Source of the DNA: a virus
Length of the DNA: 64,000 bases
Virus record (IMG/VR): IMGVR_UViG_3300028394_000055
Span: 28,632-92,631 of that record
Direction: 5' to 3' (one strand)
The translations under genes and the position numbers were made by a program. Below the pieces are notes generated by a model. It had not been told where the DNA came from, did no database searches, and saw nothing but the letters and a program-made list of their open reading frames with translations. Within the stretch, counting starts at the first letter, position 1. Every line of letters begins with the position of its first letter. Below, one piece after another: positions 17,953 through 40,619 of the stretch.

Positions 17953-18010
17953 GTCTTGCCTTTCTGTTTAAAAGTGTTATTGTAACAGGGAGTTGCCTCC
18001 CTGTCTATGT

Positions 18011-18355
18011 TCAATCTGCCCGACCGCCTGCGTAGGCTGTGACACCCAGTCGTTCTTTCAAAATCTTTGCAGCCGCCGATGCACCTGCTTCTTTCACTGA
18101 CATGCTCTGGGTACCGTGACCACTTGGGTTCCACCATTGCAGGCCGCCACCGTAGGCTTTCTTAAAGCCTGCTTTGATCAATGCGCGGCCCAGTTTGGTT
18201 GAGCCTTTCTCGTAGACGTTAACCCAGGCAAAGCCGCAGTACCAATCTTCACCGTGTTTGGTGATGTAGTCCTGAGCGGCCTGGGCGGCGGCTTGTTGGG
18301 CTTCGCGGATAGCGTCGTTGACGATCTTCTGTACTTGAGTTGCTGTGAGTCCCAT
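18011..18355 (-). CDS. conserved phage hypothetical protein
   Basis: own promoter and AGGAG RBS; CGFAWV...QS...KEAGA.A.A motif. Confidence 0.85.
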   Translation of the reverse strand: MGLTATQVQKIVNDAIREAQQAAAQAAQDYITKHGEDWYCGFAWVNVYEKGSTKLGRALIKAGFKKAYGGGLQWWNPSGHGTQSMSVKEAGASAAAKILKERLGVTAYAGGRAD

Positions 18356-18429
18356 TTAGTGCTCCTTAGTGTGTAAGTAAGTATTATAAGCGAGAACAGC
18401 ACACTTGTCAAGTGTGCTAGTAATAACCC

Positions 18430-18600
18430 TTAGGCTGTCTGGGTCTCTACAAATTGCATAAGTTCCTCGTATGTAAGTTCGTATGCATTTGCAAGTTCCG
18501 CGTCCAATTCCTCAAAATTGTCCCCTAAATAGTTAATAGTTTGTACTAGGGACATTCCGCTGTCTTTTGCAAACTGTGCAACAATTACTAAGTGTTTCAT
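18430..18600 (-). CDS. small acidic protein (56 aa, not in ORF track)
   Basis: MKHLVIVAQFAKDSGMSLVQTINYLGDNFEELDAELANAYELTYEELMQFVETQTA; own promoter and AAGGA RBS. Confidence 0.75.
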   Translation of the reverse strand: MKHLVIVAQFAKDSGMSLVQTINYLGDNFEELDAELANAYELTYEELMQFVETQTA

Positions 18601-18637
18601 ATGTGTTCCTTTTTGTTTATGTGTGTATTATAGCAGT

Positions 18638-18805
18638 TTAGTCTGCTGCTGTCAAGTCTTTTTGTGTAAAGTTAAACAGTTTGTTGTATGTAGCAACCAA
18701 CTCGTCGTCGGTCATTTTATAGCAAACACTATTTGTATCGTATTCCATTTTAATATTATACATCATTTGCCAACGTGTTAGTCCGTTACTTAATACTTTT
18801 CTCAT
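18638..18805 (-). CDS. small protein (55 aa, not in ORF track)
   Basis: MRKVLSNGLTRWQMMYNIKMEYDTNSVCYKMTDDELVATYNKLFNFTQKDLTAAD; own promoter and RBS. Confidence 0.75.
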   Translation of the reverse strand: MRKVLSNGLTRWQMMYNIKMEYDTNSVCYKMTDDELVATYNKLFNFTQKDLTAAD

Positions 18806-18891
18806 TATGTTCCTTTTTGTTTAAGTGTGTATTATAACGCAAAAAAGCACATTTGTCAAATGTGCTGTTAATAACCCTGAGGGCAGTGTGG

Positions 18892-19062
18892 TTATTTCTT
18901 GGTCGTTGGAGCCTGCTGTATCTGCACACAGGTGCCTTTGAATTGCTGTTTCTGCAGGTCTTGTAGTGCGGCTTGACACACCGCCTGCTGTTCAAACTGC
19001 CCTATGTAGGTCACGCTGGGTGCTGTGGTTCCTATGCCGATGAGTGCTATTGCCCAGAACAT
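18892..19062 (-). CDS. small exported-type protein (56 aa, not in ORF track)
   Basis: MFWAIALIGIG...F...AVCQAA...GTCVQ; follows the ORF at 19064. Confidence 0.65.
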   Translation of the reverse strand: MFWAIALIGIGTTAPSVTYIGQFEQQAVCQAALQDLQKQQFKGTCVQIQQAPTTKK

Positions 19063-19063
19063 A

Positions 19064-19294
19064 TCAATCCTTCTTGGTTAGGGCGGCCTTGAACAGGGTG
19101 GCCTTGAACAGGATGCCGCATAGGAACTGGATGCCCCAAGCCTGTAGCCACGTGACTTCTTTAACGCCATCTACAGCACCTACCAAGCATCCATTCCACA
19201 GCATCATCACGGGCCAGGATAGCACAAAGGATAGGAACAGCAGGGTGGCAACGCCGACTACCATTGCGGTGAGTGCTACAATTACGTCTTTCAT
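19064..19294 (-). CDS. small membrane protein
   Basis: hydrophobic; MMLWN...VTWLQAWG motif; GAGG RBS. Confidence 0.8.
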   Translation of the reverse strand: MKDVIVALTAMVVGVATLLFLSFVLSWPVMMLWNGCLVGAVDGVKEVTWLQAWGIQFLCGILFKATLFKAALTKKD

Positions 19295-19303
19295 ATTGAC
19301 CTC

Positions 19304-19405
19304 TTACAAAAATATGTACACGATGGCATAACCTACGGGCAACAGGCAAAGTGTTCCCACAGTTAGAACAATGGCAAAATCTAGTGTGTCTTTTAACAGT
19401 TGCAT
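19304..19405 (-). CDS. 33-aa hydrophobic peptide (not in ORF track)
   Basis: MQLLKDTLDFAIVLTVGTLCLLPVGYAIVYIFL; own promoter and AGGAG. Confidence 0.6.
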   Translation of the reverse strand: MQLLKDTLDFAIVLTVGTLCLLPVGYAIVYIFL

Positions 19406-19433
19406 CTCTATCTCCTAAAAATGTATTATAACA

Positions 19434-19652
19434 CTAAATGCGGAATTGGTCAAGCATTTCTTTTGCCTCATTGACCTCAGTGATCTCATCGGCAAAGGCC
19501 ATGATCATCAACTGGATCAGTGATCGGCACTCAAGACGTTCTGCCCGGGGCAGGGTAGCGATGAATGCTTCCACAGCATTGTATTCCTCCAAGGACCACA
19601 TGATGTCGCATAGGGCCTTTTGCTTGTGGGTTAGTCCAGTAATTAGTTTCAT
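19434..19652 (-). CDS. hypothetical protein
   Basis: own promoter and RBS. Confidence 0.8.
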   Translation of the reverse strand: MKLITGLTHKQKALCDIMWSLEEYNAVEAFIATLPRAERLECRSLIQLMIMAFADEITEVNEAKEMLDQFRI

Positions 19653-19692
19653 CGTCGTCTCCTAAAATTGTATTATAGCAGGGTTCTAGGGT

Positions 19693-19887
19693 TCAGTCAA
19701 CCGGTTTGAATGTCCGGCCTTTTAGGTCAAGTACCAAGGGTGTCTTGAACTTGAACACTTGGTTTGATCCTTGTGGCACGTAGGCCAAGGCACTTGCACT
19801 TCGTTCTCCGGGCTTGCCCTTGAAGATGTAGATGTGATTGCCACCTTGCCCATCGGGCCACCGGGTGGTCTCTTGTAGGACGATCAC
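19693..19887 (-). CDS. hypothetical protein
   Basis: LQETT.W...NHIY...F..PL..D..GRTF motif; coupled to the upstream ORF. Confidence 0.75.
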   Translation of the reverse strand: MIVLQETTRWPDGQGGNHIYIFKGKPGERSASALAYVPQGSNQVFKFKTPLVLDLKGRTFKPVD

Positions 19888-20105
19888 AGGGCACCGGCCT
19901 TGCGGAACATGTCCATGAACGCCGTGTTGATCAAGTCCATCTCCTCTTGCTCTACGTAGAAGTCCGTGGTGGGATCGTAGTACATGCCTTCCTTGTTGTC
20001 GTAGTACAGAACACGACCTGAGAAGTTGAACGGACCTTCCAGTCCCTTGCGGGGACCATACTTGTCACGCATACGATCTACGGTGTCCATTACGCGATAT
20101 CCCAT
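19884..20105 (-). CDS. conserved phage hypothetical protein
   Basis: GLEGPF..GRVLYYD.KEG.YYDP.TD; own promoter and RBS. Confidence 0.85.
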   Translation of the reverse strand: MGYRVMDTVDRMRDKYGPRKGLEGPFNFSGRVLYYDNKEGMYYDPTTDFYVEQEEMDLINTAFMDMFRKAGAL

Positions 20106-20141
20106 GCTGTGCTCCTTAGTGTGTAAGTATGTATTATAAGG

Positions 20142-20318
20142 TCAAACACCCACTATGTCAACCAGTTCTTCCCAGGCTTCTTCGATGGTGTCAAAGCCGC
20201 AGACATCATAGGATCCATCGTAGAGTCGAACATAGAACTTGCCGTTGCCCGGACTGGCTTCTGTATCCAAGCCCGCTTCGCCCACGCTGGGGATAACTCG
20301 CATGGTCTGATCAGTCAT
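20142..20318 (-). CDS. hypothetical protein
   Basis: start at MTDQT overlaps the upstream stop. Confidence 0.65.
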   Translation of the reverse strand: MTDQTMRVIPSVGEAGLDTEASPGNGKFYVRLYDGSYDVCGFDTIEEAWEELVDIVGV

Positions 20319-20674
20319 ACAGCCGCCTTGGCAAAGTAGCGATAGGGCAAGCCAACCAGGTAGCAGAGGAACTCGTCGTCCCCATTCGAACCTTCTGCCT
20401 CGTGGATCCAACGCAGGGCCATCTCACGGTCCTTAGCACCGCAGGCCATTACGGATTGGATCCGCATCTCAAAGGCGTGTGCGGCTTTTTCCTCTGCGGC
20501 CTTACGCAGGAGTTCATTGTCAGCGATGATGACCTGCAGACGATCCAAGTCTGCTTCAATCTCTGCTTCAGTGCAGAGGTCCAAGCGGATGTGACGTGGG
20601 CGGAAGCCGTGTGCGTCCTTGTACATATCCCAGAAGATGCTCTGTAGTTCTTCCATGCGGGTCATTGTTTCCAT
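20315..20674 (-). CDS. conserved phage hypothetical protein
   Basis: WDMYKDAHGFRPR...ALRWI...GLPY.YF; start at METMT after GGAG. Confidence 0.85.
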   Translation of the reverse strand: METMTRMEELQSIFWDMYKDAHGFRPRHIRLDLCTEAEIEADLDRLQVIIADNELLRKAAEEKAAHAFEMRIQSVMACGAKDREMALRWIHEAEGSNGDDEFLCYLVGLPYRYFAKAAV

Positions 20675-20747
20675 AGTGTGCTCCAGTGTGTTGCTGTTCA
20701 TGTGTGTATTATAGCAGGAAACAATGCCCTTGTCAACCAAAGGGTCT

Positions 20748-20981
20748 TTACAGATTCTCACCAGAGACCGTATCAATGGCACCAGTGTAGACAGCAACGA
20801 CGCCGTTGCCTTCCTCAAGCCAGCCATTTATGTTCCAGACGTCACGATGTCGATTGTAGGATTCCACCCACATGAGTGCATCCTCACGGGTGTCGAACTC
20901 TTCCTCTCCGAGCACCTTGTGATCATTCACATGACCGGCATAGATAGGGTAGATTTGAACATTGTGTACGATTGCCATCAT
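20748..20981 (-). CDS. hypothetical protein downstream of the structured leader
   Basis: GGAGCAC RBS; 77 aa. Confidence 0.75.
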   Translation of the reverse strand: MMAIVHNVQIYPIYAGHVNDHKVLGEEEFDTREDALMWVESYNRHRDVWNINGWLEEGNGVVAVYTGAIDTVSGENL

Positions 20982-20987
20982 GTGCTC

Positions 20988-21199
20988 CAGTTAGGAAAAA
21001 GTTAGAGGAACTTTGCTGATCAATTCTGAGCTAGCTACTCTCAGATCAATCGCCGTCATTACTGCCTGCCTATTTCGTCTGCTTCTCCTTGCGGATTGCC
21101 ATCTTGTAAGTGGAGGAGTAGCCTGCTAAGGCGGGGCTCAAACCCATAATCCCATCACTCACCTAACGATGCAGGTAACCTCTAACTCTTTCCTAACTG
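20988..21199 (-). ncRNA. candidate structured ncRNA closed by a 21-bp stem
   Basis: Inverted repeat at 20988-21008 / 21179-21199 (one difference, a G-U pair in the RNA) encloses 170 nt with several hairpins and no ORF; lies directly behind a consensus promoter. Confidence 0.6.
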
Positions 21200-21242
21200 T
21201 CTATGTGTGTATTATAACGCACATAGACAGCCTTGTCAACCT

Positions 21243-21506
21243 TTATTTGTCACTGCCCCAATCTTTTTTCTCACCAAACGATTCATTGTCGTTGAAGCCT
21301 GCGGTGTAGGCTGTGATCTCAGCGGCAGTCATGTTCTCCAAGTCCACACGAGGTGTGGTGCTTGTGGCACCTTCAAAGTAGTGCGGATGATATCCACGAC
21401 CGTAGTAACTGTCGGCACTGCCCCGATCATAGGGGCCACCATGCCGTGGGTCATAGTTAGGTTGGCTGGTGTGGTTACCAGCCACTGCGTCCATATATGA
21501 GGCCAT
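21243..21506 (-). CDS. conserved phage hypothetical protein
   Basis: HGGPYDRGSADSYY.R...PHY...EI.AY.AG motif. Confidence 0.85.
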   Translation of the reverse strand: MASYMDAVAGNHTSQPNYDPRHGGPYDRGSADSYYGRGYHPHYFEGATSTTPRVDLENMTAAEITAYTAGFNDNESFGEKKDWGSDK

Positions 21507-21516
21507 TGTCTGCTCC

Positions 21517-21717
21517 TTAGTAAGATTGGTGACTGTGACCAATGCGGTACATCACAGTGGGCACATTCTCTTCTGTGTCCGGTGTGTAAGGCTCTGGCAA
21601 CATGATCGTTGCGAATTCGCCATAGCAGTAATAACCGCTTTCGGTCACTACCAACTCTGCGTCGCCGGGCAAACGGCTCAATGCCTCTATCATCGCTGCT
21701 ACTGTTATTACTGTCAT
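21517..21717 (-). CDS. hypothetical protein
   Basis: TVAAMIEALSRLPGDAELV; own promoter and RBS. Confidence 0.8.
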   Translation of the reverse strand: MTVITVAAMIEALSRLPGDAELVVTESGYYCYGEFATIMLPEPYTPDTEENVPTVMYRIGHSHQSY

Positions 21718-21778
21718 CTTCTGCTCCTAGTGTGTGTTGCTGTCTATGTGTGTATTATAGCAGGATCCTAAGACCCTG

Positions 21779-21988
21779 TCAACCGGAAGTGTATTCTCTA
21801 ACCCACTCAAATTGGCTAGCCACCGCAAGGGCCGGCACCCACTTGAACTCAGAGCGCTTGCCATACATCTTGTCAAAGTCCAAGCAGACCAAGACCCAAC
21901 CTGGCTCAGGGCTGAAGCCCACGGTCTCTGCAGTCCGAACGATTTCAACGATCCTACCGTCTCTCATCTTTGCTACTTTGATCATCAT
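21779..21988 (-). CDS. hypothetical protein
   Basis: start at MMIKV after AAGGAG; own promoter. Confidence 0.75.
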   Translation of the reverse strand: MMIKVAKMRDGRIVEIVRTAETVGFSPEPGWVLVCLDFDKMYGKRSEFKWVPALAVASQFEWVREYTSG

Positions 21989-22050
21989 GTGCTCCTTGCT
22001 GTCTATGTGTGTATTATAGCAGGTTTGGAGAACCCTGTCAACCTCTAAGG

Positions 22051-22401
22051 TTATCGGCAATCAATGTAAGCAGATTGGATCCATTGACCCCAAGGGTTAC
22101 GAACCCAACCACGCTGTTCAAAGGGCATGGTTCCAGGAGGGCATTGAACGAACCCTTGCGGTGCTTGTGGTTGAACATAGACTTGGGGTTGTTGTTGAAT
22201 TACAACAGGTTCCTGACGATTGGCATTAGCGATCGCTGCACCAAAGATGCCGCCGATGATCAAGGGCACTAGGACGTCTCCGCCGGTCTGAACTCGCTCA
22301 ACGATCACGGTGCGTGGCTGATGGCGGTATTCACGGTAGTAGTCTGCTTGAGCAGCACCGACTAAGGTTAATCCGATTGCAAGGGCGATGATCTGTTTCA
22401 T
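22051..22401 (-). CDS. secreted/membrane protein with glycine-zipper-like segment
   Basis: signal peptide ending AAQA, LIIGGIFGAAIA, Q/P/V-rich tail. Confidence 0.75.
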   Translation of the reverse strand: MKQIIALAIGLTLVGAAQADYYREYRHQPRTVIVERVQTGGDVLVPLIIGGIFGAAIANANRQEPVVIQQQPQVYVQPQAPQGFVQCPPGTMPFEQRGWVRNPWGQWIQSAYIDCR

Positions 22402-22491
22402 AGTGTTCTCCGTTGTATGCTATTATTATAGTCTCAAAGTATTTACCTGTCAACCTGTAGGGTCTTTCAAAAGAGGTTGACAACCATAGAT

Positions 22492-22580
22492 GAACCCCGT
22501 ACACTTTGGGCATACGGGGTTCTGGGGGTTTGCCCGGGACACTACCCCCGGGACTTTTGTCCAGTACGCGATGCTGGACT
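22492..22580 (-). other. GC-rich triple-hairpin intergenic structure
   Basis: GAACCCCGTA/TACGGGGTTC, CCCGGG/CCCGGG and GTCCAG/CTGGAC stems. Confidence 0.55.
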
Positions 22581-22592
22581 TCGGAGCGTTCT

Positions 22593-22868
22593 TTAGACTA
22601 GGCCAAGAGCCATTGCCCGGTAACCGGCTGCGATCAACTTGCGTGAAGGCTGTCCGATTACGTATTCTTTAACTTCTACGTGATTACCAGCGACACGAGT
22701 GTTACCGTACACTGCAAAGCCAGCAGCACGGATGCGGCTAACTTCAGCACTGATGTTCTTGATACCGAAACGCTTCTCTGCTTGGCTAGCGGTAACAGAC
22801 TCTCCGGACTTCAATGCGCTGAATAGTTTGTGGGTCTTGGTGCCCTGGTTGATGTTATAAGTTGTCAT
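22593..22868 (-). CDS. winged-HTH DNA-binding protein
   Basis: LFSALKSGESVTASQAEKRFGIKNISAEVSRIR..G..V pattern. Confidence 0.7.
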   Translation of the reverse strand: MTTYNINQGTKTHKLFSALKSGESVTASQAEKRFGIKNISAEVSRIRAAGFAVYGNTRVAGNHVEVKEYVIGQPSRKLIAAGYRAMALGLV

Positions 22869-22916
22869 TTGTTTTCCTTAATGTTATACTGTTCACACAG
22901 TTACAACAATATTACA

Positions 22917-23174
22917 TTAATCCTTGATCAATGTCAATGTCCTTTGGAACTTCTTGGCTGGTTTCTTTTTGCCAAACTCTTGATCAGTGTAGAACTCAAT
23001 CAACCTACGCTGAATCATAGTCAGCAAGTCACCGTGCTCGTTGTCAATGATGAACCTAACAGGGCAATGAGCCCAAGACTTACGTGCTTGGAACTCTGCA
23101 AACCACTGTCGGTGTTGTTTGGATTGGGCGTCAAACACTACCCATTGTCTGCCATATAACGAAAGCCTACTCAT
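22917..23174 (-). CDS. conserved phage hypothetical protein
   Basis: FDA.SK.HR....EF....SW..CPVRF motif. Confidence 0.8.
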   Translation of the reverse strand: MSRLSLYGRQWVVFDAQSKQHRQWFAEFQARKSWAHCPVRFIIDNEHGDLLTMIQRRLIEFYTDQEFGKKKPAKKFQRTLTLIKD

Positions 23175-23188
23175 TGTGTCTCCTAGTG

Positions 23189-23260
23189 TCTTAGTTAAAC
23201 AGAGTACTCATTTTCTTCGATGCCCGGCACTCTGTTTAACTAAGAGGGGCATATAGCCCC
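23189..23260 (-). other. 17-bp perfect stem-loop (RNase III-like) plus small hairpin
   Basis: TCTTAGTTAAACAGAGT(23189-23205) pairs with ACTCTGTTTAACTAAGA(23229-23245); GGGGC-ATATA-GCCCC at 23246-23260. Confidence 0.65.
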
Positions 23261-23277
23261 AATACCCCGCTATTAGA

Positions 23278-23667
23278 TTAGTAGGGTGCGTCTTCCATCT
23301 GGGCAACGATCGCTGCCTTGGAGACAGTGCTCTTAGGAGCGGCCTTGACCTTAGCCTTGATGGATTCCATCGTAGGTTTGGCCTTAGCAGCCTTAGGAGC
23401 CTTGGCGGGCTTAACGGCACGCTTGTCTACAGCCTCGAACAATGCTGCTTCAACTTCGGCATTGGTAACGCCGTTTTGAGTAGCGAAGTCAATGCTCATA
23501 AGATACGCAATGGCATCTTCTTTAGTCATTGGCTCTTTGAGCTCGATGATGTCAATGTCCTTGTGACCATTCTTGGCCAAGACCTTGACGCGAAGAGCAT
23601 CATTAGCGAAACGAACTTTGAACTCACCGTTGAGACGGGAAACACCTGCATGTGTAAAAACTGACAT
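23278..23667 (-). CDS. hypothetical protein with Lys/Ala/Pro-rich histone-like tail
   Basis: start at MSVFTH after AGAGG; KPAKAPKAAKAKP tail. Confidence 0.8.
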   Translation of the reverse strand: MSVFTHAGVSRLNGEFKVRFANDALRVKVLAKNGHKDIDIIELKEPMTKEDAIAYLMSIDFATQNGVTNAEVEAALFEAVDKRAVKPAKAPKAAKAKPTMESIKAKVKAAPKSTVSKAAIVAQMEDAPY

Positions 23668-23763
23668 AATAAACCTCTTTCTCTGTGTGTAAAAATATGG
23701 ATGCATAATTGCGTGTCCATATGTTAATTATACAACGGTTATGGTCCGTTGTCAACCATTATT

Positions 23764-23946
23764 TTAAGAATTTATTGTTTCGAATGGGCTCAGCTCCTCC
23801 TGTGGCGTATCTGCCACAAAGTTGCTTTCGATCCAACCATATACAATCTCTATAGGGCACTCTAATTGAACTGCAATGCTACGGGCACTGAACCCTGCAA
23901 TGTACATCTGCTCAATGTCGTATGATAGTTCGCTCATCTTACTCAT
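23764..23946 (-). CDS. small HTH-like protein
   Basis: IEQMYIAGFSARSIAVQLECPIEIVYGW. Confidence 0.7.
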   Translation of the reverse strand: MSKMSELSYDIEQMYIAGFSARSIAVQLECPIEIVYGWIESNFVADTPQEELSPFETINS

Positions 23947-24151
23947 CGTAGGCCTCCTCGCCCATTTCGGTTACTGTTTCTTCAAACACCCGAACATCAA
24001 CGATGCGGGCTGTTTGATCTTCATTGCTAACACCTTCAAAGGCATCTCGGAAACTTTGGCACTCTGCCAAGAAGTTGAAAACATCTTGTCGATCCCAAGT
24101 GCCCGGCACTTCCAATACCTGTACCAGTTCTGTGCGTACTGTGACTTTCAT
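23939..24151 (-). CDS. hypothetical protein
   Basis: overlapping start/stop with both neighbours. Confidence 0.75.
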   Translation of the reverse strand: MKVTVRTELVQVLEVPGTWDRQDVFNFLAECQSFRDAFEGVSNEDQTARIVDVRVFEETVTEMGEEAYDE

Positions 24152-24615
24152 GCTGTTTCCTTTTCTAATGCTTCTGTTAATAGTGTCAAACGCTTGCTCA
24201 AAGGCGTGCTTGTGTATGTGTCACCACAATACCAAACACCGTCCTTGATAATGTAGTAGTACTCAGCACCACAGCCGTCTGCTTGCTCCAGGAACTCTTC
24301 GAAGGTGTGTGCTACTTGGAACTCAGTACCAGTCTCGCCGCGGTCACGTGCGTAGAACGTGCAGTAGCCTGCTTCTTTGGCTGCTTCGTATGCCAACTTG
24401 TCTAATTCGCTAGTGTGTGGGCTGAACGGATGTGCTTCACCAATTACCCGGCCCAACGAACTCATGTCGCCTAATGCTACAAGGTTGTTGGCTCGAGCAC
24501 TGTCGTAATGCTCTTGGAGGATTGCTCCGTTGTGTGCGAGATAGCCATCCCAGTGGCAATAAACGCTTTTGACCTTGTCACCGTGCATGACTCCAATGCG
24601 TGATCGTGTTCCCAT
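24148..24615 (-). CDS. conserved phage hypothetical protein
   Basis: MGTRSRIG...YCHWDGY...G..L..HY...EYYY family motif; own promoter. Confidence 0.88.
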   Translation of the reverse strand: MGTRSRIGVMHGDKVKSVYCHWDGYLAHNGAILQEHYDSARANNLVALGDMSSLGRVIGEAHPFSPHTSELDKLAYEAAKEAGYCTFYARDRGETGTEFQVAHTFEEFLEQADGCGAEYYYIIKDGVWYCGDTYTSTPLSKRLTLLTEALEKETA

Positions 24616-24678
24616 AGTGTGCTCCAGTTAGTGTGTGTAAGTGTATATTATAACAGGGTTCTTAGGCCCTGTCAACCA

Positions 24679-24888
24679 TTATTTGAAATAAACTACCAAA
24701 TTCCGTGTAGCAGTCTTTACGAATGCACAGTTGCCATCTACCGTGTGCTTGGGGTTGTTCATTACTTTATTGTATATAATTTTGACACTGCGAGCGCTTT
24801 GCTCGGGTGTAGTGTACTTGCCCTGGCACCCGCACATACAGCCGCGGTTGCCGCTATAAACTTCCTCTACGTTGGCTAGTGTAAACAT
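24679..24888 (-). CDS. hypothetical protein
   Basis: YSG..GCMCGC.GKY motif; own promoter and RBS. Confidence 0.8.
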   Translation of the reverse strand: MFTLANVEEVYSGNRGCMCGCQGKYTTPEQSARSVKIIYNKVMNNPKHTVDGNCAFVKTATRNLVVYFK

Positions 24889-24973
24889 GAACGCTCCTTA
24901 GTGTGTAAGCATTAATTATAACAAGGTTTTACCACTTTGTCAACCAACCCTACACACCGTAGGGTCTTTGTTG

Positions 24974-25321
24974 TTAATCTACAACAACCAGTTGTCCGAA
25001 CTTAGCAGTCCAACTCTTGAGGAACTTTGGACCCACATCACATGACACATAGTCATTGCCCTGCATACCCTGCTCGCTATAACTGACATCCAAGCCCAAC
25101 TTGTGCTCGACTAGGAAGTTGGTCACATCTTCAAAGAACTGACCATCTGTGTAGATCAAACCGTCTTTGCGTGTATCCCAAGTCTCGGTGTTGAAGTAGA
25201 TACGCAGTTCGCCAAAGTCTAGTTCGTCACTGACATAGCCCAACTGCATATCAACGATCTCTACAGCCTTTCGGGCTCGACTCCAGTAGCCATCGCCTTT
25301 GGTGTTGAAAATTACTGTCAT
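24974..25321 (-). CDS. conserved phage hypothetical protein
   Basis: GLIYTD..F...YSEQGMQG..YVS.DV motif. Confidence 0.85.
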   Translation of the reverse strand: MTVIFNTKGDGYWSRARKAVEIVDMQLGYVSDELDFGELRIYFNTETWDTRKDGLIYTDGQFFEDVTNFLVEHKLGLDVSYSEQGMQGNDYVSCDVGPKFLKSWTAKFGQLVVVD

Positions 25322-25421
25322 TGCTGCTCCTTAGTGTGTAAGCATGTATTATAGCACCAAATAGAAACCCTGTCAACCGTAGGGTTATTTGGTTAGGATC
25401 TTGACCATCCACTCAATTGCA

Positions 25422-25913
25422 TCACTCATTTTCGTTCTCCTCTTCTTGCTCTGCTTCGTACTCTGCTACAGACTCGCTGATGCCAAAGGTCTCATCCAAG
25501 TCATCGGGTAGCAGGGCTTCGATCTCCTCGGCACTCATGTCACCATATTCATAGTAGTCATCATCACCGTTCTCCCACTTGCCGCAGAAGGCCATACCAG
25601 GTTCGTAGTAGTAGGCCAGTATCTTGAAGCCCTGCTCCATCAACTGCTCATAGGCACTAGTAGGGGGAGCCCAGGCACTATCAAAGTTGAACACAACACC
25701 ATTGGCATCCTGCTCTACCATGTGAGCATCTTCACCGCCCACATCCCACTTGGTGCCCCAGTTCTGGACACACCAATTGTAGTCCCACTCACCGTTGGGG
25801 AATGGTACGAACTCTTGTAAGAACCTGCCTGCTTGATAGGCCGTCTTAGCCCGCTCAATCATAGCAGGGTCGTTGTGGCTGATGTTCAGCGTGTTATTGC
25901 ACCAATTTGGCAT
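25422..25913 (-). CDS. DUF1281/YubB-like ferredoxin-fold phage protein
   Basis: MPNWCNN, WCVQNWGTKWD, FDSAWAPP, YYEPGMAFCG. Confidence 0.85.
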   Translation of the reverse strand: MPNWCNNTLNISHNDPAMIERAKTAYQAGRFLQEFVPFPNGEWDYNWCVQNWGTKWDVGGEDAHMVEQDANGVVFNFDSAWAPPTSAYEQLMEQGFKILAYYYEPGMAFCGKWENGDDDYYEYGDMSAEEIEALLPDDLDETFGISESVAEYEAEQEEENENE

Positions 25914-25914
25914 G

Positions 25915-26187
25915 TTATTCTCCAGTGTAATATTCGTAAAAGGATTCTTTAACAGCGGGATCCAACCGGATCAACTCTGTTACACATTGATTCAAGTAGT
26001 CCTGCTTCTTACGCAGTTCTACACCACGTACCTCGCCATCACAGGTCAAGTTCTCTGGGCTTAGGTCTGCATCCAACGATTGGGCAACCCGCCGGCGACC
26101 TGAGGCACTCTGCACCTCAAACTGCTCACCTTTGAAGATAGCGTTCCAACGGTTCTTCTGCTCTACATAGGCTGTCAATGCTTTCAT
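25915..26187 (-). CDS. conserved phage hypothetical protein
   Basis: LSPENLTCDGE motif; own promoter and RBS. Confidence 0.85.
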   Translation of the reverse strand: MKALTAYVEQKNRWNAIFKGEQFEVQSASGRRRVAQSLDADLSPENLTCDGEVRGVELRKKQDYLNQCVTELIRLDPAVKESFYEYYTGE

Positions 26188-26245
26188 CTCTGCTCCTTAG
26201 TGTGTAAGTAAGTATTATAGCAGGGGATTGCTCCCCTGTCAACCA

Positions 26246-26530
26246 TTACATTGTGTGAAACAGTTCGCGACTCGGGTCGTTGCAGGTTCCCTGGCACTCA
26301 CGGCGGATCTCAACTTCCTTACCAGTCAAACAGTTCTTCACAGTCACAAGCTGGCGACCGTTGAATGCGGCAACCTGCTTGACGAACTCTTTCTGCTTGC
26401 GTTTGGGCAATAGGCGCAACATCTCCTGCGCCATCTGGTTGGTGTAGCCTGCTGTGAATGCGGCACCTTGCTCGCTGAACATGAGGTTCAGTTCTTCTTT
26501 GAGTGCAGTTTGATTGTCTGTGGTAAACAT
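26246..26530 (-). CDS. hypothetical protein
   Basis: VKNCLTGKEVEI...C.DPS.E motif; own promoter. Confidence 0.8.
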   Translation of the reverse strand: MFTTDNQTALKEELNLMFSEQGAAFTAGYTNQMAQEMLRLLPKRKQKEFVKQVAAFNGRQLVTVKNCLTGKEVEIRRECQGTCNDPSRELFHTM

Positions 26531-26581
26531 GAGTGCTCCTTAGTGTGTAAGCAGTAATTATAACAAGGTTTTACCAGTCTG

Positions 26582-26830
26582 TCAAGCCAGTGCTCGGAAT
26601 AACCCTACAGCCATTGTGGCTAATGCTGCAACGTTAACTGCCATCTGTGGCTTATTTGCCACACGTATGGTCCATGTCAAGAACAATATAGTTCCCACAG
26701 CAAAGGCCGCAATGTTCCAAACGTCCTTATGATAGGCACTGCCCATGGTGTTGAGTACGTGCCCTGCTGTGATAAAGAACGCCCCTGTCCATTGTAGTAC
26801 TTCGTCTTTGTTAATATTAAGCACAGGCAT
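26582..26830 (-). CDS. small multi-pass membrane protein
   Basis: three hydrophobic helices; start at MPVLN. Confidence 0.75.
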   Translation of the reverse strand: MPVLNINKDEVLQWTGAFFITAGHVLNTMGSAYHKDVWNIAAFAVGTILFLTWTIRVANKPQMAVNVAALATMAVGLFRALA

Positions 26831-27191
26831 TCTCTCGGTCAACCTGATCGCTTAACTCAGCAAACTTCTTGCTCATACGATATACTTGACTCTTAGCCTC
26901 AGTCATAGCCTCAGCAATGAAGTCCTCGGCAGTCCCGTCAGTAAGCACCTCACGGGCATCTTCGTATAAGCATCCGCCCAAATAGGCACTGCCAAGTTCG
27001 AGCCCTTCGACGAGTACACGTACCCGCAACATGAACCATTCGTAGGTCCCGTTGTCAATCTTACGGAGGATCTCGTCCATGTCGTCTGATTCGAAGTGAT
27101 CCCTGGGGTTAAAGTCTTCATAGGTCTTATCCACAATAACGGTGTAGCCGTCACGTTCAAACTCAGCGATTGTGTCGTAATATTGTGTCAT
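26817..27191 (-). CDS. conserved phage hypothetical protein
   Basis: WFMLRV...ELGSAYLGGC.Y motif. Confidence 0.8.
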   Translation of the reverse strand: MTQYYDTIAEFERDGYTVIVDKTYEDFNPRDHFESDDMDEILRKIDNGTYEWFMLRVRVLVEGLELGSAYLGGCLYEDAREVLTDGTAEDFIAEAMTEAKSQVYRMSKKFAELSDQVDRENACA

Positions 27192-27478
27192 TATGCCAAT
27201 TCCTTTTCAACGATGGTGAGCATGTTAGCAGGCACTCTCCACATGCCAGTGGTTGTGCATACTGTGACAAACTTGATAGCGATCTTCATCACGGTGCCCT
27301 GCATAGTGCGGCCTGTCTTAGAACTAGTGAAACTGACCTCGTCGCCGTAGCGTAGGCTTCGTTTGGTGTTTTCACGCAGGCGTGCTTGTGCAAAGCGGAC
27401 AGCGTCCACAATGCTAACCAGTTGAGCGTTGGTAAAGCCACCCTGCAGGATCTCAGTGTTAATCTGCGTAATATTCAT
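27191..27478 (-). CDS. SH3-like hypothetical protein
   Basis: GDEVSF...GTVMKI..K.V.V....WRVP..ML; own promoter. Confidence 0.8.
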   Translation of the reverse strand: MNITQINTEILQGGFTNAQLVSIVDAVRFAQARLRENTKRSLRYGDEVSFTSSKTGRTMQGTVMKIAIKFVTVCTTTGMWRVPANMLTIVEKELA

Positions 27479-27530
27479 CTCATGCTCCTTAGTGTGTAAG
27501 TAAGTATTATAACGCCGTTAGGCACTCTTG

Positions 27531-27770
27531 TCAACCTAAAACTATCACGCGGCGAGCACCTTCGAAGTCGCCTTCTTCTTCGTACATCTCGTCCTCGTCT
27601 AAGAGCCGGTCCATACGGTGATATTCACTGTACTTGACCATGCCCTCTAATACGCTGCCTACTTTGGGGGCAACCTCTGTGCGCCAGTGATCGCCATAGT
27701 TATAACTGAAGTGAACTTCAGCATTGGGATCTAAATCCATCAATTGCTCGATTAGTTGAAAGACTTGCAT
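27531..27770 (-). CDS. hypothetical protein
   Basis: V.QLIEQL..LDPNAEV..SYNYGDHWRT; own promoter. Confidence 0.8.
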   Translation of the reverse strand: MQVFQLIEQLMDLDPNAEVHFSYNYGDHWRTEVAPKVGSVLEGMVKYSEYHRMDRLLDEDEMYEEEGDFEGARRVIVLG

Positions 27771-27850
27771 CTCATGCTCCTTAGTGTGTAAGCGTTAATT
27801 ATACAATGGTTTTACCACTAGGTCAACCAAAGACCCTACAATGCCTAGGG

Positions 27851-28066
27851 TTAATACTTGACCACGCGATCCACTTGTGTCAAGTAAGCCCATGAGTCAT
27901 CGTAGTCAATGCCCGGGAGTCCATTCTTGATATCCTCATCTACGCCCGTTACAGTAACAGTCTTTGGGCTACCCGTGCCAAAGTTATCACGCACACGCAC
28001 GATGGATCCCTCGCGAATGTCGCTGAGCATGACTCGCTTGAGAACTGTTGAGTATTGTGTAAACAT
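27851..28066 (-). CDS. hypothetical protein
   Basis: AAGGAG RBS; IKNG.PG.DY...WAY..QV motif. Confidence 0.8.
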   Translation of the reverse strand: MFTQYSTVLKRVMLSDIREGSIVRVRDNFGTGSPKTVTVTGVDEDIKNGLPGIDYDDSWAYLTQVDRVVKY

Positions 28067-28077
28067 AAGTGCTCCTT

Positions 28078-28290
28078 TTAGCAGTCAGCGTCAAAGTCTG
28101 CCCACTCTTGGGCTTCATCGGGCTGACCGTCATCATCTTCTTCTTCGAAGCGCTCGCTCAACTCGTTGGCATCCAGCAGGTCTTCAACTTCGCTTTCGCT
28201 CATGAAACCCATGCACATGTCAACCACTTGCTCATGAGTGATCATACCCTGATCTAGCAAGTCGTATAGTCTCTCTCTGGCTTTAGTCAT
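28078..28290 (-). CDS. acidic hypothetical protein
   Basis: start at MTKAR; C-terminal DGQPDEAQEWADFDADC. Confidence 0.8.
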   Translation of the reverse strand: MTKARERLYDLLDQGMITHEQVVDMCMGFMSESEVEDLLDANELSERFEEEDDDGQPDEAQEWADFDADC

Positions 28291-28337
28291 CTCATGCTCC
28301 TTAGTGTCTATGCGTGTATTATAGCGGACATCCGCCA

Positions 28338-28682
28338 CTATGTCAAGTCGCCGCGAATGTCCGTGTTCAGCGCAGGGTTAATCAAGCGACGCAGTTCAAC
28401 TTCCCGCTTGTGAGCAGCAGCCTTACCACGTATGATCTCATGCACACGAATCTCAATCTCGCTCTTGTCATTCAAAGAGCGCAAAGCCACGCACAGGGCC
28501 CAGTCCTTGTTCTCAGTCTTGGCACGATAGAAGTGCTTGGCTGCACGAGCACGAACTGACTTCAATACAGTGGTCTCTGTCTTAGCAGTGACACCAATGT
28601 AGTTGAGGCCGTTGACCACTAGTTCATACACTATGTGATTGCGGTCTACACGCTTCTTACGAGTAACAGTTTCTTTGTTCAT
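28338..28682 (-). CDS. GIY-YIG-like protein (leaderless)
   Basis: HIVYEL...NYIGVT...R...H...AHKRE...P.LN; ATG at the predicted +1 of the promoter. Confidence 0.7.
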   Translation of the reverse strand: MNKETVTRKKRVDRNHIVYELVVNGLNYIGVTAKTETTVLKSVRARAAKHFYRAKTENKDWALCVALRSLNDKSEIEIRVHEIIRGKAAAHKREVELRRLINPALNTDIRGDLT

Positions 28683-28969
28683 GTATGTATTATAACAAGG
28701 TTTTACCACTTTGTCAATAACTTTCTTTCTGTAGGGTTATTCGTTGTTTTCCCACAACATGACCGGCACTCCTGTGAAACTTAACATAATGCCAAAAGAA
28801 AACCCTATTACCACAAGGGTCTTAGGGTCTCTTAGTCAGTACATTCAGCAAGTCTCTGTCGTACTGCCCGATCAGCTTGTTCCAATGTAGTCTCCTACAC
28901 GTGCCTTTACCACCGGATGTTTACGTGGTCACTGATTCAACTCCAGTAGCATATAGTCTATGACTGTAC

Positions 28970-29513: not shown

Positions 29514-29584
29514 CCTATAGCGGGGTATTTGGCACTAGGCCTACAGCGGGGTATTTGGCACTAGGCCTACAGCGGGGTATTTGG
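29514..29584. repeat. 26-bp tandem repeat, about 2.7 copies
   Basis: CCTA[TC]AGCGGGGTATTTGGCACTAGG at 29514, 29540 and 29566 (partial); core CAGCGGGGTATT again near 29646. Confidence 0.9.
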
Positions 29585-29769
29585 TATATAGTGTATATAC
29601 ACAGTGGTGATCACGCTGTGCATATACTCAATTCAAAGAGTGTTCCAGCGGGGTATTCATTACCAGTTAAGTCTATGGCATATATGGTAAGCAATGCCCA
29701 AGATGATCATAGGTCCGCTAATGGCGAGTAGTTCTAGCATGTTATATTCTCCTTATATTCAAGTAGTAT

Positions 29770-34225: not shown

Positions 34226-36223
34226 ATGTCTACACCAGCAACCCCAATCACATTCACATTACATAATAATAGTACAAGTAGCATTGCTATACGTAGTATA
34301 AGTTATGTTGATGCTGCCGAAATTCAACATGTATCAGATTATACAGGTATAGGTGGCACCTCCGGAGACACTCGGGGAGATACAATTGTAAGACATACAA
34401 AGTTGTATGAGTATGGTGACTATCTGCAAAAGAATTTTGTAAGAGACACAAAACCTGCAAGTGCAAGATATACCACAATGACTGGTGTGACATTGACAGT
34501 TGAAAGCGTATTAAACATACAACCGGGTTGGATTGCTTCGGGAAATGGATTAACTGGAAGATCAGTTGTAACAGTAACCCCACCTACCACTTTAACACTT
34601 GATGGCACATATTCTAGTCCGCCCCCTCCTACAATTGGTGGAACTGTTACTTTTTCTACAACTACCAAGGCTATTATAGTAAACAATTCCACTAATCTAG
34701 GATTAGGTTGGAAAATTATAGGTAATGGTTATGAATTAGCAGACAATGCAATAATCACATCTATAAATGGTAGCACATTAGAAGTTAATGTGTTATCAGG
34801 AACTAATTCGGTAGTAGGAAGTCCCTTTACCTTTTCATCTTCAACAAATTATCTAACACTCAATAACAATACAAGTCTTGAAACCGGATTTAGTGCAAAA
34901 AACAATGGTTATAATGATACACAAAATATAATATCTGTTTTAATAGATGGTAAAACAGTTCAAATGAGTGCACCTCCTGGTAGTCTTCCTACAGTGGGTA
35001 ATCCTATTACGTTCACATCTAATGCAAATCTAGTTGTAATACCAGCCTACAGTGAAGTTACTTTCTCAATCAATTATACAAGTGGTGGACCAGTAGGTAC
35101 AAACTATTATTCAGCGATAACCATAAATGCTACTCAGTTGCCATCCACTCCATTAGTGGGTCATATAGATAATTATGTAAATATAGCAACTCCTGCTGCA
35201 CCCCCTCCTGCACCAGGCTCACCAACTACAACATACACAACAACATATACCGGTGGTGGACAAGGTGGTAATCGTCAAACTTACGTAACAACCACTTATG
35301 GTTATGCAGACGGCTCTACACTCTCCATTACAACTAATGAAAATGGTACTATAACATCACAAAGTTCAACAAATGCCGACCCAGGCAGCGAAGGCGATCC
35401 GGGTGCTGGCACAGTAACTACTAGTGTTACAAGTAACCCCAATGCCAGTAGTCCTTCGGGGGAGTGTTTTGATCCAATGGCGCTAGTTACTATGCATGAT
35501 GGATCAAAAAAACATATTAAAGATATTATGGTTGGTGACTTATTAATGAATCAACAGGGAACATCCAATGAAGTGCTTGGTATTGTTACGCCAAAGTTAA
35601 AGAGTAGTTTAATGTATTCTTTTAACAAGCATTGGGCATTTGTATCAGAGTCACATCCTATATTAACAACCACTGGTTGGGCAGCATTTAACCCCAACAG
35701 TTGGGCAGTAGAAGAAGAATTTGTGGGTAAGTTATCTAAAATAGAAATAGGTACAGAAATTATAACTCAAGATGGAACTGAATTAGTCACTGAGATCAAA
35801 GGGCATGTATTACCAGAATATTATACCATATACAATTTGATATTAGGTGGTGATCACACGTACATTGTTGAAGATTGTATAGTGCATAACAAGAAAGGTA
35901 TTGTATGCACAGCAATGAATGATCATTATGGTTTTGGTTCGTTCCGTAATCGTGTATGGTTAAAATATGCAGAAAAGAATTTAACCAAAGCGCATGAAGT
36001 AGGATATCATACAATCTTTTTACCTTTAGTTAATTATGGATTCAAACAAGGTAATGGCATCACAAATCGAATAGTTAGGAACATATTAGAGCATATAGCA
36101 AGACATCGCAGCACAGACATACGGGCAGAAATGCGAGGATTAAAACGAGATGCCCTCGGAAGAGCATATAGATTCATACTTGAACCTTTGTGTTGTCTAG
36201 TTGGTAAATTAAAAGGATATTAA
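34226..36223 (+). CDS. Thr/Ser-rich virion protein with Hint (intein-like) domain and C-terminal IVCTAMN domain
   Basis: Three ~60-aa repeats; Hint CFDPMALV...SESHP...YNL...HTYIV...IVHN at 35465-35890. Confidence 0.85.
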   Translation: MSTPATPITFTLHNNSTSSIAIRSISYVDAAEIQHVSDYTGIGGTSGDTRGDTIVRHTKLYEYGDYLQKNFVRDTKPASARYTTMTGVTLTVESVLNIQPGWIASGNGLTGRSVVTVTPPTTLTLDGTYSSPPPPTIGGTVTFSTTTKAIIVNNSTNLGLGWKIIGNGYELADNAIITSINGSTLEVNVLSGTNSVVGSPFTFSSSTNYLTLNNNTSLETGFSAKNNGYNDTQNIISVLIDGKTVQMSAPPGSLPTVGNPITFTSNANLVVIPAYSEVTFSINYTSGGPVGTNYYSAITINATQLPSTPLVGHIDNYVNIATPAAPPPAPGSPTTTYTTTYTGGGQGGNRQTYVTTTYGYADGSTLSITTNENGTITSQSSTNADPGSEGDPGAGTVTTSVTSNPNASSPSGECFDPMALVTMHDGSKKHIKDIMVGDLLMNQQGTSNEVLGIVTPKLKSSLMYSFNKHWAFVSESHPILTTTGWAAFNPNSWAVEEEFVGKLSKIEIGTEIITQDGTELVTEIKGHVLPEYYTIYNLILGGDHTYIVEDCIVHNKKGIVCTAMNDHYGFGSFRNRVWLKYAEKNLTKAHEVGYHTIFLPLVNYGFKQGNGITNRIVRNILEHIARHRSTDIRAEMRGLKRDALGRAYRFILEPLCCLVGKLKGY

Positions 36224-39236: not shown

Positions 39237-40619
39237 ATGTCAGAGCCACAAAATGTTAGGATTAAAAAAATAATTCCTATTATAAATGCAATAAGCCCTA
39301 CCTTTTGTTTGGCTAAATGGCACCACGTAACTTTATATCTACAAACCGGAGAGACACATAGTTGTTATCATCCTACTCCACATAAAATTGATTTAGATGA
39401 ACTTGAAAACAATCCAAGTGCATTACACAATACATCTCATAAAAAATTAGAGCGTAAAGAAATGTTAGAAGGTATAGAAACTAAAGGATGTCAATATTGT
39501 TGGAATATTGAGGATATGGGAACTGATTACATAAGTGATAGACATATACGTAATGCCAGCATTTTTACAGAAGAAAGATTTAAGAATGTAGTGGATGGTC
39601 CATGGAATCAAAATGTAAATCCAGAATATGTTGAGATTAGTTTTGGCAATGAGTGCAATTTTAAATGTGGATATTGTCATCCTAAAGCCAGCAGCAGATT
39701 TTATAATGAAATAAAAGAATACGGTCCTGTTACTAAAGTAAAAAATCATCGATGTGATATTGATTGGATGGATTTGTATGAAAGAGAAGAATTTAATCCT
39801 TATGTAGATGCTTGGTGGGAATGGTGGCCTGAAATGCGTAAAACGTTAAACATTTTACGTATTACAGGAGGTGAACCTCTCATGCATAAAAGCACATGGA
39901 GACTATTAGATAGTTTAAAAGTAGACCCTATGCCTGCTCTCGAATTAAACATTAACAGTAATCTAGGAGTTAAATCTAAATTAGTTGATAAGATGATTAC
40001 TAATATTAACACACTTATTGACAACAATGGTATAAAACAATTTAAATTGTTTACCAGCATCGACACTTGGGGACCTAGAGCAGAATATATTCGAACAGGG
40101 TTGGATTTAACATTATGGGAAAGTAATTTAGATAGATATTTAAAATCTACTGGAAACCCTATTAGTTTCATGATTACTTTTAATATATTGTCAGTTACAA
40201 CTTTTAAAGAGTTGCTATCTAAAATTTTAGAATGGCGATCTATATATAATCAATACAATAAGACTAGTCAATTTCAAATGATTACATTTGACACACCATA
40301 TTTGAAAGAACCATTGCAGTATGACATGAACATTTTACCTAAAGAAGAATTTATGCCTTATATGTTAGATTCTTTAAAATTTATGGAAGAGAATACAGAT
40401 AGTTCAAATGTTAATAAATTTTCTCAAGTTGAATTTGAAAAATTTAGAAGAGTAGTTGACTATATGCAAACTACTGATTACGGACAAGATAAAATAAATG
40501 AAGGTCGCAAAGATTTCTATCATTGGTTTATAGAGATTGATAAAAGAAGGGGAACTGACTTCCTATTAACATTTCCTGAGATGGGAGATTTTTTAAAAGA
40601 TATAAAAAATGATATTTAA
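39237..40619 (+). CDS. radical SAM protein with twitch-like N-terminal Cys cluster
   Basis: CNFKCGYC and TGGEP; extra FC..KW...SC.H...GC.YCW. Confidence 0.9.
   Translation: MSEPQNVRIKKIIPIINAISPTFCLAKWHHVTLYLQTGETHSCYHPTPHKIDLDELENNPSALHNTSHKKLERKEMLEGIETKGCQYCWNIEDMGTDYISDRHIRNASIFTEERFKNVVDGPWNQNVNPEYVEISFGNECNFKCGYCHPKASSRFYNEIKEYGPVTKVKNHRCDIDWMDLYEREEFNPYVDAWWEWWPEMRKTLNILRITGGEPLMHKSTWRLLDSLKVDPMPALELNINSNLGVKSKLVDKMITNINTLIDNNGIKQFKLFTSIDTWGPRAEYIRTGLDLTLWESNLDRYLKSTGNPISFMITFNILSVTTFKELLSKILEWRSIYNQYNKTSQFQMITFDTPYLKEPLQYDMNILPKEEFMPYMLDSLKFMEENTDSSNVNKFSQVEFEKFRRVVDYMQTTDYGQDKINEGRKDFYHWFIEIDKRRGTDFLLTFPEMGDFLKDIKNDI

Follow-up and report, generated by a model that had tools for sequence, protein, structure and literature searches.

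A gene for an uncatalogued structured RNA of giant freshwater phages, placed in one lineage between an early-type promoter and a messenger RNA

A 212-base insert (21199-20988, minus strand) in a viral DNA stretch of 64,000 nucleotides, hereafter the window (positions 28,632 to 92,631 of IMG/VR record IMGVR_UViG_3300028394_000055), is a gene for an uncatalogued structured non-coding RNA of giant freshwater phages with T4-like replication genes. To our knowledge, all evidence of such phages comes from metagenomes, and hardly any of their early genes has been explained. The data collected here show that the RNA gene is present in single copy and that, as a rule, it forms a separate unit, either following an early sigma-70-type promoter or lying within a tRNA array. 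Taken as a whole, we consider it probable that the insert represents one RNA gene of this family, which is fused to an mRNA in the window, would be released by RNase III and would act in trans.

The proteins encoded in the window include UvsW-like and DnaB-like helicases, radical-SAM enzymes and a carbamoyltransferase, a set that fits a large T4-like phage. No tRNA was found in the window or in its own 92.6-kb contig. An ORF of 665 aa (34226-36223, plus strand) shows a weak, sub-threshold match to a Hint or homing-endonuclease-associated Hint domain at residues 408-486, perhaps the remnant of an intein; it has as neighbours two radical-SAM ORFs (48938-50863 and 39237-40619) and the carbamoyltransferase (53120-54592).

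The insert occupies the leader of a small transcription unit (Table 1). The perfect promoter reported by the first-pass annotation is indeed present, and the leader behind it has both ends in common with the sister cassettes, ACACACAUAGACAG at its start and GGAGCAC-AUG at its close. Its length, however, is 232 nt. It is unique in this among the 22 promoter cassettes between 17 and 30 kb, the remaining 21 having leaders of 19-59 nt, and so bears out the earlier description of a usual leader interrupted by about 200 nt. The closing stem stops one base inside the Shine-Dalgarno GGAG, in agreement with the earlier statement that it ends at the ribosome-binding site of the next gene. Since neither a promoter nor a terminator is present between the RNA element and the following 77-aa ORF, the two are co-transcribed. 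The annotation was mistaken in stating that no ORF exceeds about 10 codons, because a GTG frame of 30 codons (21162-21070, minus strand) and a TTG frame of 38 codons (plus strand) exist. Both frames are devoid of a ribosome-binding site and lie in the part of the RNA where relatives differ by insertions and deletions, and therefore the designation as non-coding stands.

Table 1. Features of the RNA gene and its surroundings in the window, listed in the direction of transcription
Feature	Position	Strand	Remarks
Sigma-70-type promoter, TTGACA-17 nt-TATAAT	21211..21239	(-)	12/12 consensus positions
Start of standard cassette leader, ACACACAUAGA	21200..21210	(-)	Common to sister cassettes
P1 5' arm of 21-bp closing stem	21179..21199	(-)	Inner GAGG invariant across family
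Match to covariance model R1, full length	20995..21192	(-)	111.1 bits, E 1.6e-31, model positions 1-197; match partly by construction, the window copy being among the 12 sequences used to build R1
Invariant UUA, then 5' strands of P2 (CCUGC) and P2a (UCGUU)	21165..21178	(-)	Partners 21065-21069 and 21075-21079 by family homology; both helices covary
P3 domain, subtype-specific: GUGAGUG/CACUUAC encloses twin hairpins	21106..21162	(-)	Second loop UAGC 21128-21125
P4 hairpin UCC-GCAA-GGA, GNRA loop, into conserved GGAGAAGC joiner	21081..21095	(-)	Family-wide: position kept, stem sequence variable
3' strands of P2a (GACGA) and P2 (GCAGG), then invariant AGUAAUGAC	21055..21079	(-)	
P5 hairpin, subtype-specific; loop AGUAGCUAG 21039-21031	21018..21051	(-)	GCUA (21035-21032) complementary to P3 loop UAGC
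P1 3' arm of closing stem	20988..21008	(-)	Inner CCUC invariant; last G is first G of Shine-Dalgarno GGAG
Shine-Dalgarno GGAG, start codon and 77-aa ORF (ORF 20981-20748)	20748..20988	(-)	No assigned function

The cassette belongs to an early island on the minus strand (17979-28717) with 22 near-perfect sigma-70 promoters with 17-bp spacers, near-uniform leaders of 19-59 nt and tiny ORFs. Recombination among the promoter-leader modules of this island appears to move cargo from cassette to cassette. The ORF-poor region upstream of the island contains three tandem copies of a 26-bp unit (29514-29591), and inverted copies related to this unit are found at 23252-23282.

The two arms of the closing stem, P1, pair at 21/21 positions with 20 Watson-Crick pairs and one G-U pair, as the first-pass annotation had proposed for this stem. 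We estimate that chance alone would produce about 3e-4 matches of this quality within 300 nt in 64 kb. The minimum free energy (MFE) fold of the element has -80 kcal/mol with z = -4.85, and none of 200 shuffled sequences folds equally well. The hairpins named earlier, i.e. GUGAGUG/CACUUAC around GGGU-UUGA-GCCC and GCCU-UAGC-AGGC, then UCC-GCAA-GGA and CUGAG-N9-CUCAG, are all recovered in this fold. For P2a the pairing is assigned by homology (21169-21165 with 21079-21075), the MFE fold having given that strand another partner. The Shine-Dalgarno sequence is unsequestered in the predicted fold.

Three IMG/VR contigs have the identical element, but they carry it in identical mosaic blocks (in one case with 0 differences over 850 nt) and are consequently uninformative on covariation or constraint. 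Among relatives of both flanking genes (41 loci), the element was present at that place only in the near-identical ones. Diverged copies with the same architecture as the window (L050-L052) were obtained by scanning for the stem-arm motif, and a two-block pattern scan yielded 23 viral loci. A search with R1 found the RNA in 29/41 related phage records, with one copy each in a 364-kb genome (100% complete), a 353-kb genome (98% complete) and the 92.6-kb contig of the window; one contig among the related records has two tandem copies. In JGI metagenome contigs, a three-block scan combined with R1 gave 92 matches, 71 of them distinct, in lake metagenome sequences. The conserved family core measures about 170 nt; with its closing stem, the RNA reaches 190-240 nt. 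A looser three-block pattern applied to prokaryote genomes produced 19 matches, none of which was confirmed by R1; we attribute them all to chance, and they provide no host clue. Searching the window copy and two typical members by blastn against 50,697 cultured-phage records returned no match.

The conserved plan reads, from 5' to 3', P1 with the invariant inner GAGG/CCUC, UUA, P2, P2a, UAGG, a variable P3 domain, A(U/C/A)GAA, P4 (often with a GNRA loop), GGAGAAGC, the 3' strands of P2a and P2, AGUAAUGAC, a P5 domain and GUUCCUC. The predicted family fold comprises two three-way junctions, P1/P2/P5 and P2a/P3/P4, and the single strands joining them (GAGG-UUA-CCU, UAGG, GGAGAAGC, AGUAAUGAC and GUUCCUC) are invariant. 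All of these blocks are found in the window copy in the same order, and its P1, P2, P2a, P4 and P5 are located in homologous positions that are backed by covariation. P2 is CCUAC/GUAGG in most members and CCUAG/CUAGG also occurs, relative to which the CCUGC/GCAGG of the window is changed on both sides; P2a is CCGUU/GGCGG in most members and UCGUU/GACGA in the window. The sequence of P1 is wholly different between phage groups and still pairs. It is rich in G-U, and this frequent use of G-U implies that selection acts on the RNA of this strand, not on the DNA.

Covariation, the check suggested in the first-pass annotation, is strong. Across the 71 distinct sequences, 90.1% of the cells hold standard pairs compared with 36-48% when the partners are slid, both-side changes are seen in 33/43 pairs, and the covariation score is 0.414 against at most 0.11 with slid partners and 0.17 after shuffling, with 0/500 shuffles reaching 0.414; the alignment had been fitted to R1, which biases these counts in favour of the structure, though the difference is wide. 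The alignment demonstrates that the predicted family fold is maintained by compensatory change. Fold, covariation and promoter all support the earlier proposal of a structured non-coding RNA behind an early-type promoter.

The window copy is classified by its sequence as a divergent subtype, common to L095, L221 and L222, since it carries UAGC and AGUAGCUAG instead of the typical loop pair. In this subtype all invariant blocks are kept, and the P3 and P5 domains are replaced. L095, L221 and L222, in which the RNA precedes tRNA-Glu in other phages, have P3 and P5 modules of the window type with compensating changes: CUGAG/CUCAG becomes CUAAUC/GAUUAG, a U-A pair of the second P3 hairpin becomes G-U, and the sequence of P1 is wholly different. 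A further scan for relatives of the window type recovered only the L095-type interior again. Because only these two interior variants are known, the P3 and P5 modules of the subtype rest on few compensating changes.

In typical members, the P3 domain ends in a GNCG tetraloop (GACG or GCCG) and the P5 domain in a GACGK loop. By pattern match, with the pattern misses settled by inspection, both loops are present in 61 distinct sequences, neither in 10, and just one of the two in none. The 10 sequences represent five lineages, that of the window included, and for four of them a complement to the new P5 loop exists in another loop, which is the new P3 loop in three and a P4-extension loop in the fourth. 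The replaced pairs are UAGC with GCUA in the window, UGGCU with AGCUA in L095, GCAAC with GUUGC in L156, GCA with UGC in L083, and CACCA on the P4 extension with UGGUG on P5 in L096; such complementarity is absent from the replaced loops of the fifth lineage (the second copy of L080). GACG tetraloops are a known motif of loop-loop association and dimerisation in retroviral RNAs (PMC516450). The family resembles these kissing hairpins in that most members have GNCG and GACGK loops that are always gained or lost together, but it differs in that retroviral dimer linkage and packaging signals belong to a different biology, and the loops of the window are Watson-Crick complementary (UAGC/GCUA) instead.

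Since the two loops are lost or replaced together, the new loops are complementary and GACG provides a precedent, it is most likely that the P3 and P5 loops touch in a kissing contact, either within one molecule or between molecules. The contact is deduced from about five independent events, which do not amount to statistical proof, and the commonest loops would imply only two G-C pairs. Pairing of the GACG loops with CCGU or CCGUU elsewhere in the RNA was considered and rejected, because these sites vary by eye without matching loop change. A pseudoknot search by crude all-against-all column pairing was swamped by noise.

The surroundings of the family members reveal how the RNA is normally placed. 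Among 78 distinct contexts, a consensus-like promoter lies at most 170 nt upstream in 59. Downstream of the RNA, there is another promoter in 35 contexts and a tRNA or other conserved RNA-like block in 31 (tRNA-Asp six times, tRNA-Glu twice). A ribosome-binding site with ATG follows in only 10, seven of which belong to the lineage of the window. Because the RNA elsewhere stands alone between promoters or before tRNA-Asp or tRNA-Glu, it is a gene and not a leader, and its direct fusion to a ribosome-binding site is peculiar to the window's lineage. The identical window-type core also changes its setting: L131 has the same promoter with a different downstream gene, the core is followed by another promoter in L157, and it is preceded by other promoters in L116 and L125 and by an extra RNA block of 110 nt in L132. 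These contexts break at the repeated promoter-leader modules, which is where homologous recombination between cassettes would place the breakpoints. For this lineage it is thereby shown that shuffling between promoter-leader cassettes put the RNA between the promoter and the ribosome-binding site of the 77-aa gene; with the RNA wedged there, the gene is transcribed only as an RNA-mRNA fusion. The earlier picture of a cassette is well supported by these settings.

The same contexts bear on the idea, also raised in the first-pass annotation, that the RNA is a cis-regulatory leader (riboswitch, thermosensor or protein-binding operator) controlling translation of the 77-aa gene. Such a role would suit the window itself, in which the RNA lies in the 5' UTR with its stem abutting the Shine-Dalgarno sequence, and this arrangement is kept in seven contexts of the lineage. 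However, the identical core precedes a different gene in L131 and a promoter in L157, its relatives precede tRNAs or other RNAs, and a consistent position upstream of one gene family was not observed. Moreover, homologues of the downstream gene in other phages are preceded by a short leader of the usual kind or by no leader at all, and the predicted fold of the window copy leaves the ribosome-binding site free. We therefore regard the leader reading as unlikely for the window, and as a general role it is disfavored by the fact that mostly another promoter, a tRNA or an RNA, and no ORF, follows elsewhere.

Several other conserved blocks were observed around the RNA. Between promoter and RNA, many relatives (L081:1705-1830 on the minus strand, L132, and L050/L054/L055/L057/L058) carry a second hairpin-rich block of about 110 nt with AACCC...GGGUU and CGAGU...ACUCG, which is absent from the contig of the window and has no Rfam match at the gathering threshold. 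Downstream of the RNA in other phages, two recurring ORF-free blocks start with GGGGUGCUGGCCAUCGGGGCGG or GCGGAUAGGGUCAAGUGCG, one set in the flanks of L120, L150, L119, L168, L121 and L155 and the other in those of L166, L139, L172 and L162; their recurrence suggests clusters of several uncharacterised RNAs. One cassette upstream of the RNA in L116 (2880-3000), a module with a stem of about 20 bp (UUUGUUUAGUAAGUGC ... GCACUUACUAAACAAAG) encloses an unrelated interior.

Comparison with catalogued RNAs did not assign the family. Rfam 15 gave no match over the whole window, and with the element alone, for which E values up to 10 were admitted, nothing but a snoRNA match of 11.8 bits due to chance; eleven family loci returned tRNAs only, and a typical member at E up to 10 returned one tRNA and one chance match. 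The family that the first-pass annotation did not recognise is thus unmatched in Rfam. A description was not found in the literature searched either; a catalogue of 8,495 viral RNA candidates (PMC10690425) has motifs of at most 151 nt, and at best a fragment of the family could be listed there. Resemblances to a tRNA T arm, box C/D, k-turn, hammerhead, RNase P and a 16S complement were considered, and none survived inspection or the Rfam scans.

The closest counterparts in character are other orphan phage RNAs. RNAC and RNAD of T4 (species 1 and 2) are small stable RNAs of the tRNA cluster with a role still unknown (PMC3014915, PMC9697503). They share with the present family that they are small structured phage RNAs, and many family members likewise sit with tRNA genes. 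In contrast to them, the window copy is located away from any tRNA; rnaC and rnaD are 139 and 119 nt long, and rnaC ends in a tRNA-like T arm. An unfiltered R1 run across the tRNA region of T4 scored no higher than 3.6 bits within rnaC and rnaD, which is noise. GOLLD and ROOL (RF01998, RF03087) are described (bioRxiv 10.1101/2024.12.08.627333) as ornate orphan RNAs of phages and prophages, often located by tRNA genes and capable of RNA-RNA assembly. They differ from the window family in being three to four times larger, and a sequence or model match is absent.

A putative ribozyme, self-cleaving or otherwise catalytic, that processes its own transcript would account for the two junctions with invariant joining strands, the GNRA hairpin and the position at boundaries of RNA units. 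We hold it to be quite improbable, as relaxing the threshold to E up to 10 still brought no match to a ribozyme or intron family of Rfam, and an exon context is absent. The closing stem formed from the 5' and 3' ends, the interacting loops and the variable interior module are also reminiscent of RNA subunits or ligands of known systems, such as the Ro60/Y RNA, retron msr-msd, IS110 bridge RNA or phi29-type packaging RNA. However, TROVE, reverse transcriptase and IS110 (DEDD) transposase were found in 0/5 carrier records, including two near-complete genomes, although control genomes matched. With these proteins absent from the carriers, the Y RNA, retron and bridge RNA readings fall, and Rfam gave no match to any such RNA. 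The known-system reading is largely refuted for phage-encoded partners and, overall, very improbable. Finally, a selfish MITE-like DNA insertion with 21-bp terminal inverted repeats and no RNA function would explain the repeats, the presence/absence polymorphism relative to flanking genes and the several contexts, but it is scarcely credible, because there is one copy per genome (complete genomes included) without target-site duplication, the interior helices covary, the arms pair through G-U (where the opposite strand, or DNA, would have a mismatch) and are wholly different in sequence between phage groups around a conserved core, and the context changes map to promoter-leader modules as homologous recombination predicts; the MITE match that the first-pass annotation had allowed for thus finds no counterpart in the behavior of the element.

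For the trans-acting RNA gene, the reading that we prefer, the closing stem offers a plausible route of release. RNase III is known to process stalks in which a helix of at least 20 bp is formed from the flanks, as in the rrn operons of E. coli, and it cuts the R sites between the cistrons of T7 early RNA. The window RNA resembles these stalks in that its flanks form an uninterrupted helix of 21 bp, but it differs in that the enclosed RNA is unrelated to rRNA and about a third of the family is without the long helix. P1 extends over 20-26 bp in 35/62 family contexts, and about a third retain just the 4 inner pairs, which implies that the long stem is accessory and not needed for the core function. 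The initial description of an RNA module inside a 21-bp closing stem is hence accurate for the window, but such a stem does not define the family. By analogy with the stalks, the long P1 would fit a processing or stabilising role, its length being suited to RNase III. An RNase III of their own was not found in the complete carrier genomes, and therefore the host enzyme must be assumed for cutting.

The following sequence of events can be envisaged. Host RNA polymerase would synthesize the RNA-mRNA fusion early in infection, and host RNase III would cut the 21-bp P1 in the manner of rRNA stalks and T7 early RNA. The cut would free a stable RNA capped by its stem, together with an mRNA that has a short leader. 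The freed RNA would then work in trans, its most likely target being a protein of the host or the phage, and the contact between the P3 and P5 loops may lock both domains together or join two molecules.

Parts of the stretch are contained in six metatranscriptome runs, of which four were examined, and contigs from three studies cover the element. One contig spans 20939-21218; another spans 20946-21202 and then continues into an upstream RNA block of the L132 type; a third, of 200 nt, covers 20988-21184 and starts at the 3' end of P1. As assembled contigs from RNA libraries, in which DNA carry-over is possible, they attest presence only and give no ends, strand or level; their depth cannot rank expression, and uncovered bins are meaningless. 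One run labelled salt marsh (X17) contained a 200-nt contig of window-type RNA with 4 differences as well as neighbouring pieces, all other sources being lake or freshwater samples.

Considering its single copy, strong covariation, invariant junction strands, early-type promoters or tRNA operons and occurrence in many phages, the RNA likely serves a core step of infection. The abundance and the decoy or anti-defence roles suggested by the first-pass annotation are conjectural. A more speculative extension is that the paired loops are intermolecular contacts through which, at an early stage of infection, the RNA builds dimers or higher assemblies made of RNA alone, as a small counterpart of ROOL and GOLLD; the P5 loop of the window also contains the palindrome UAGCUA. 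We look upon this as doubtful. If it is true, the choice of pairing partner would be dictated by the interchangeable P3 and P5 modules, and the family would constitute a novel class of self-assembling phage RNA that serves host take-over.

The window adds to the family an mRNA-fused divergent subtype, a module shuffled between cassettes, an optional long stem and a joint loop replacement with the GACG precedent, and it illustrates how promoter-leader cassettes carry an RNA gene between transcription units. At about 170 nt, the RNA is small enough for structural and biochemical study, and the natural loop swaps are ready-made compensatory mutants that provide a defined test of the loop-loop pairing. 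The family thereby joins the handful of orphan RNAs from phages (T4 RNAC/RNAD, GOLLD and ROOL), whose questions of function are decades old.
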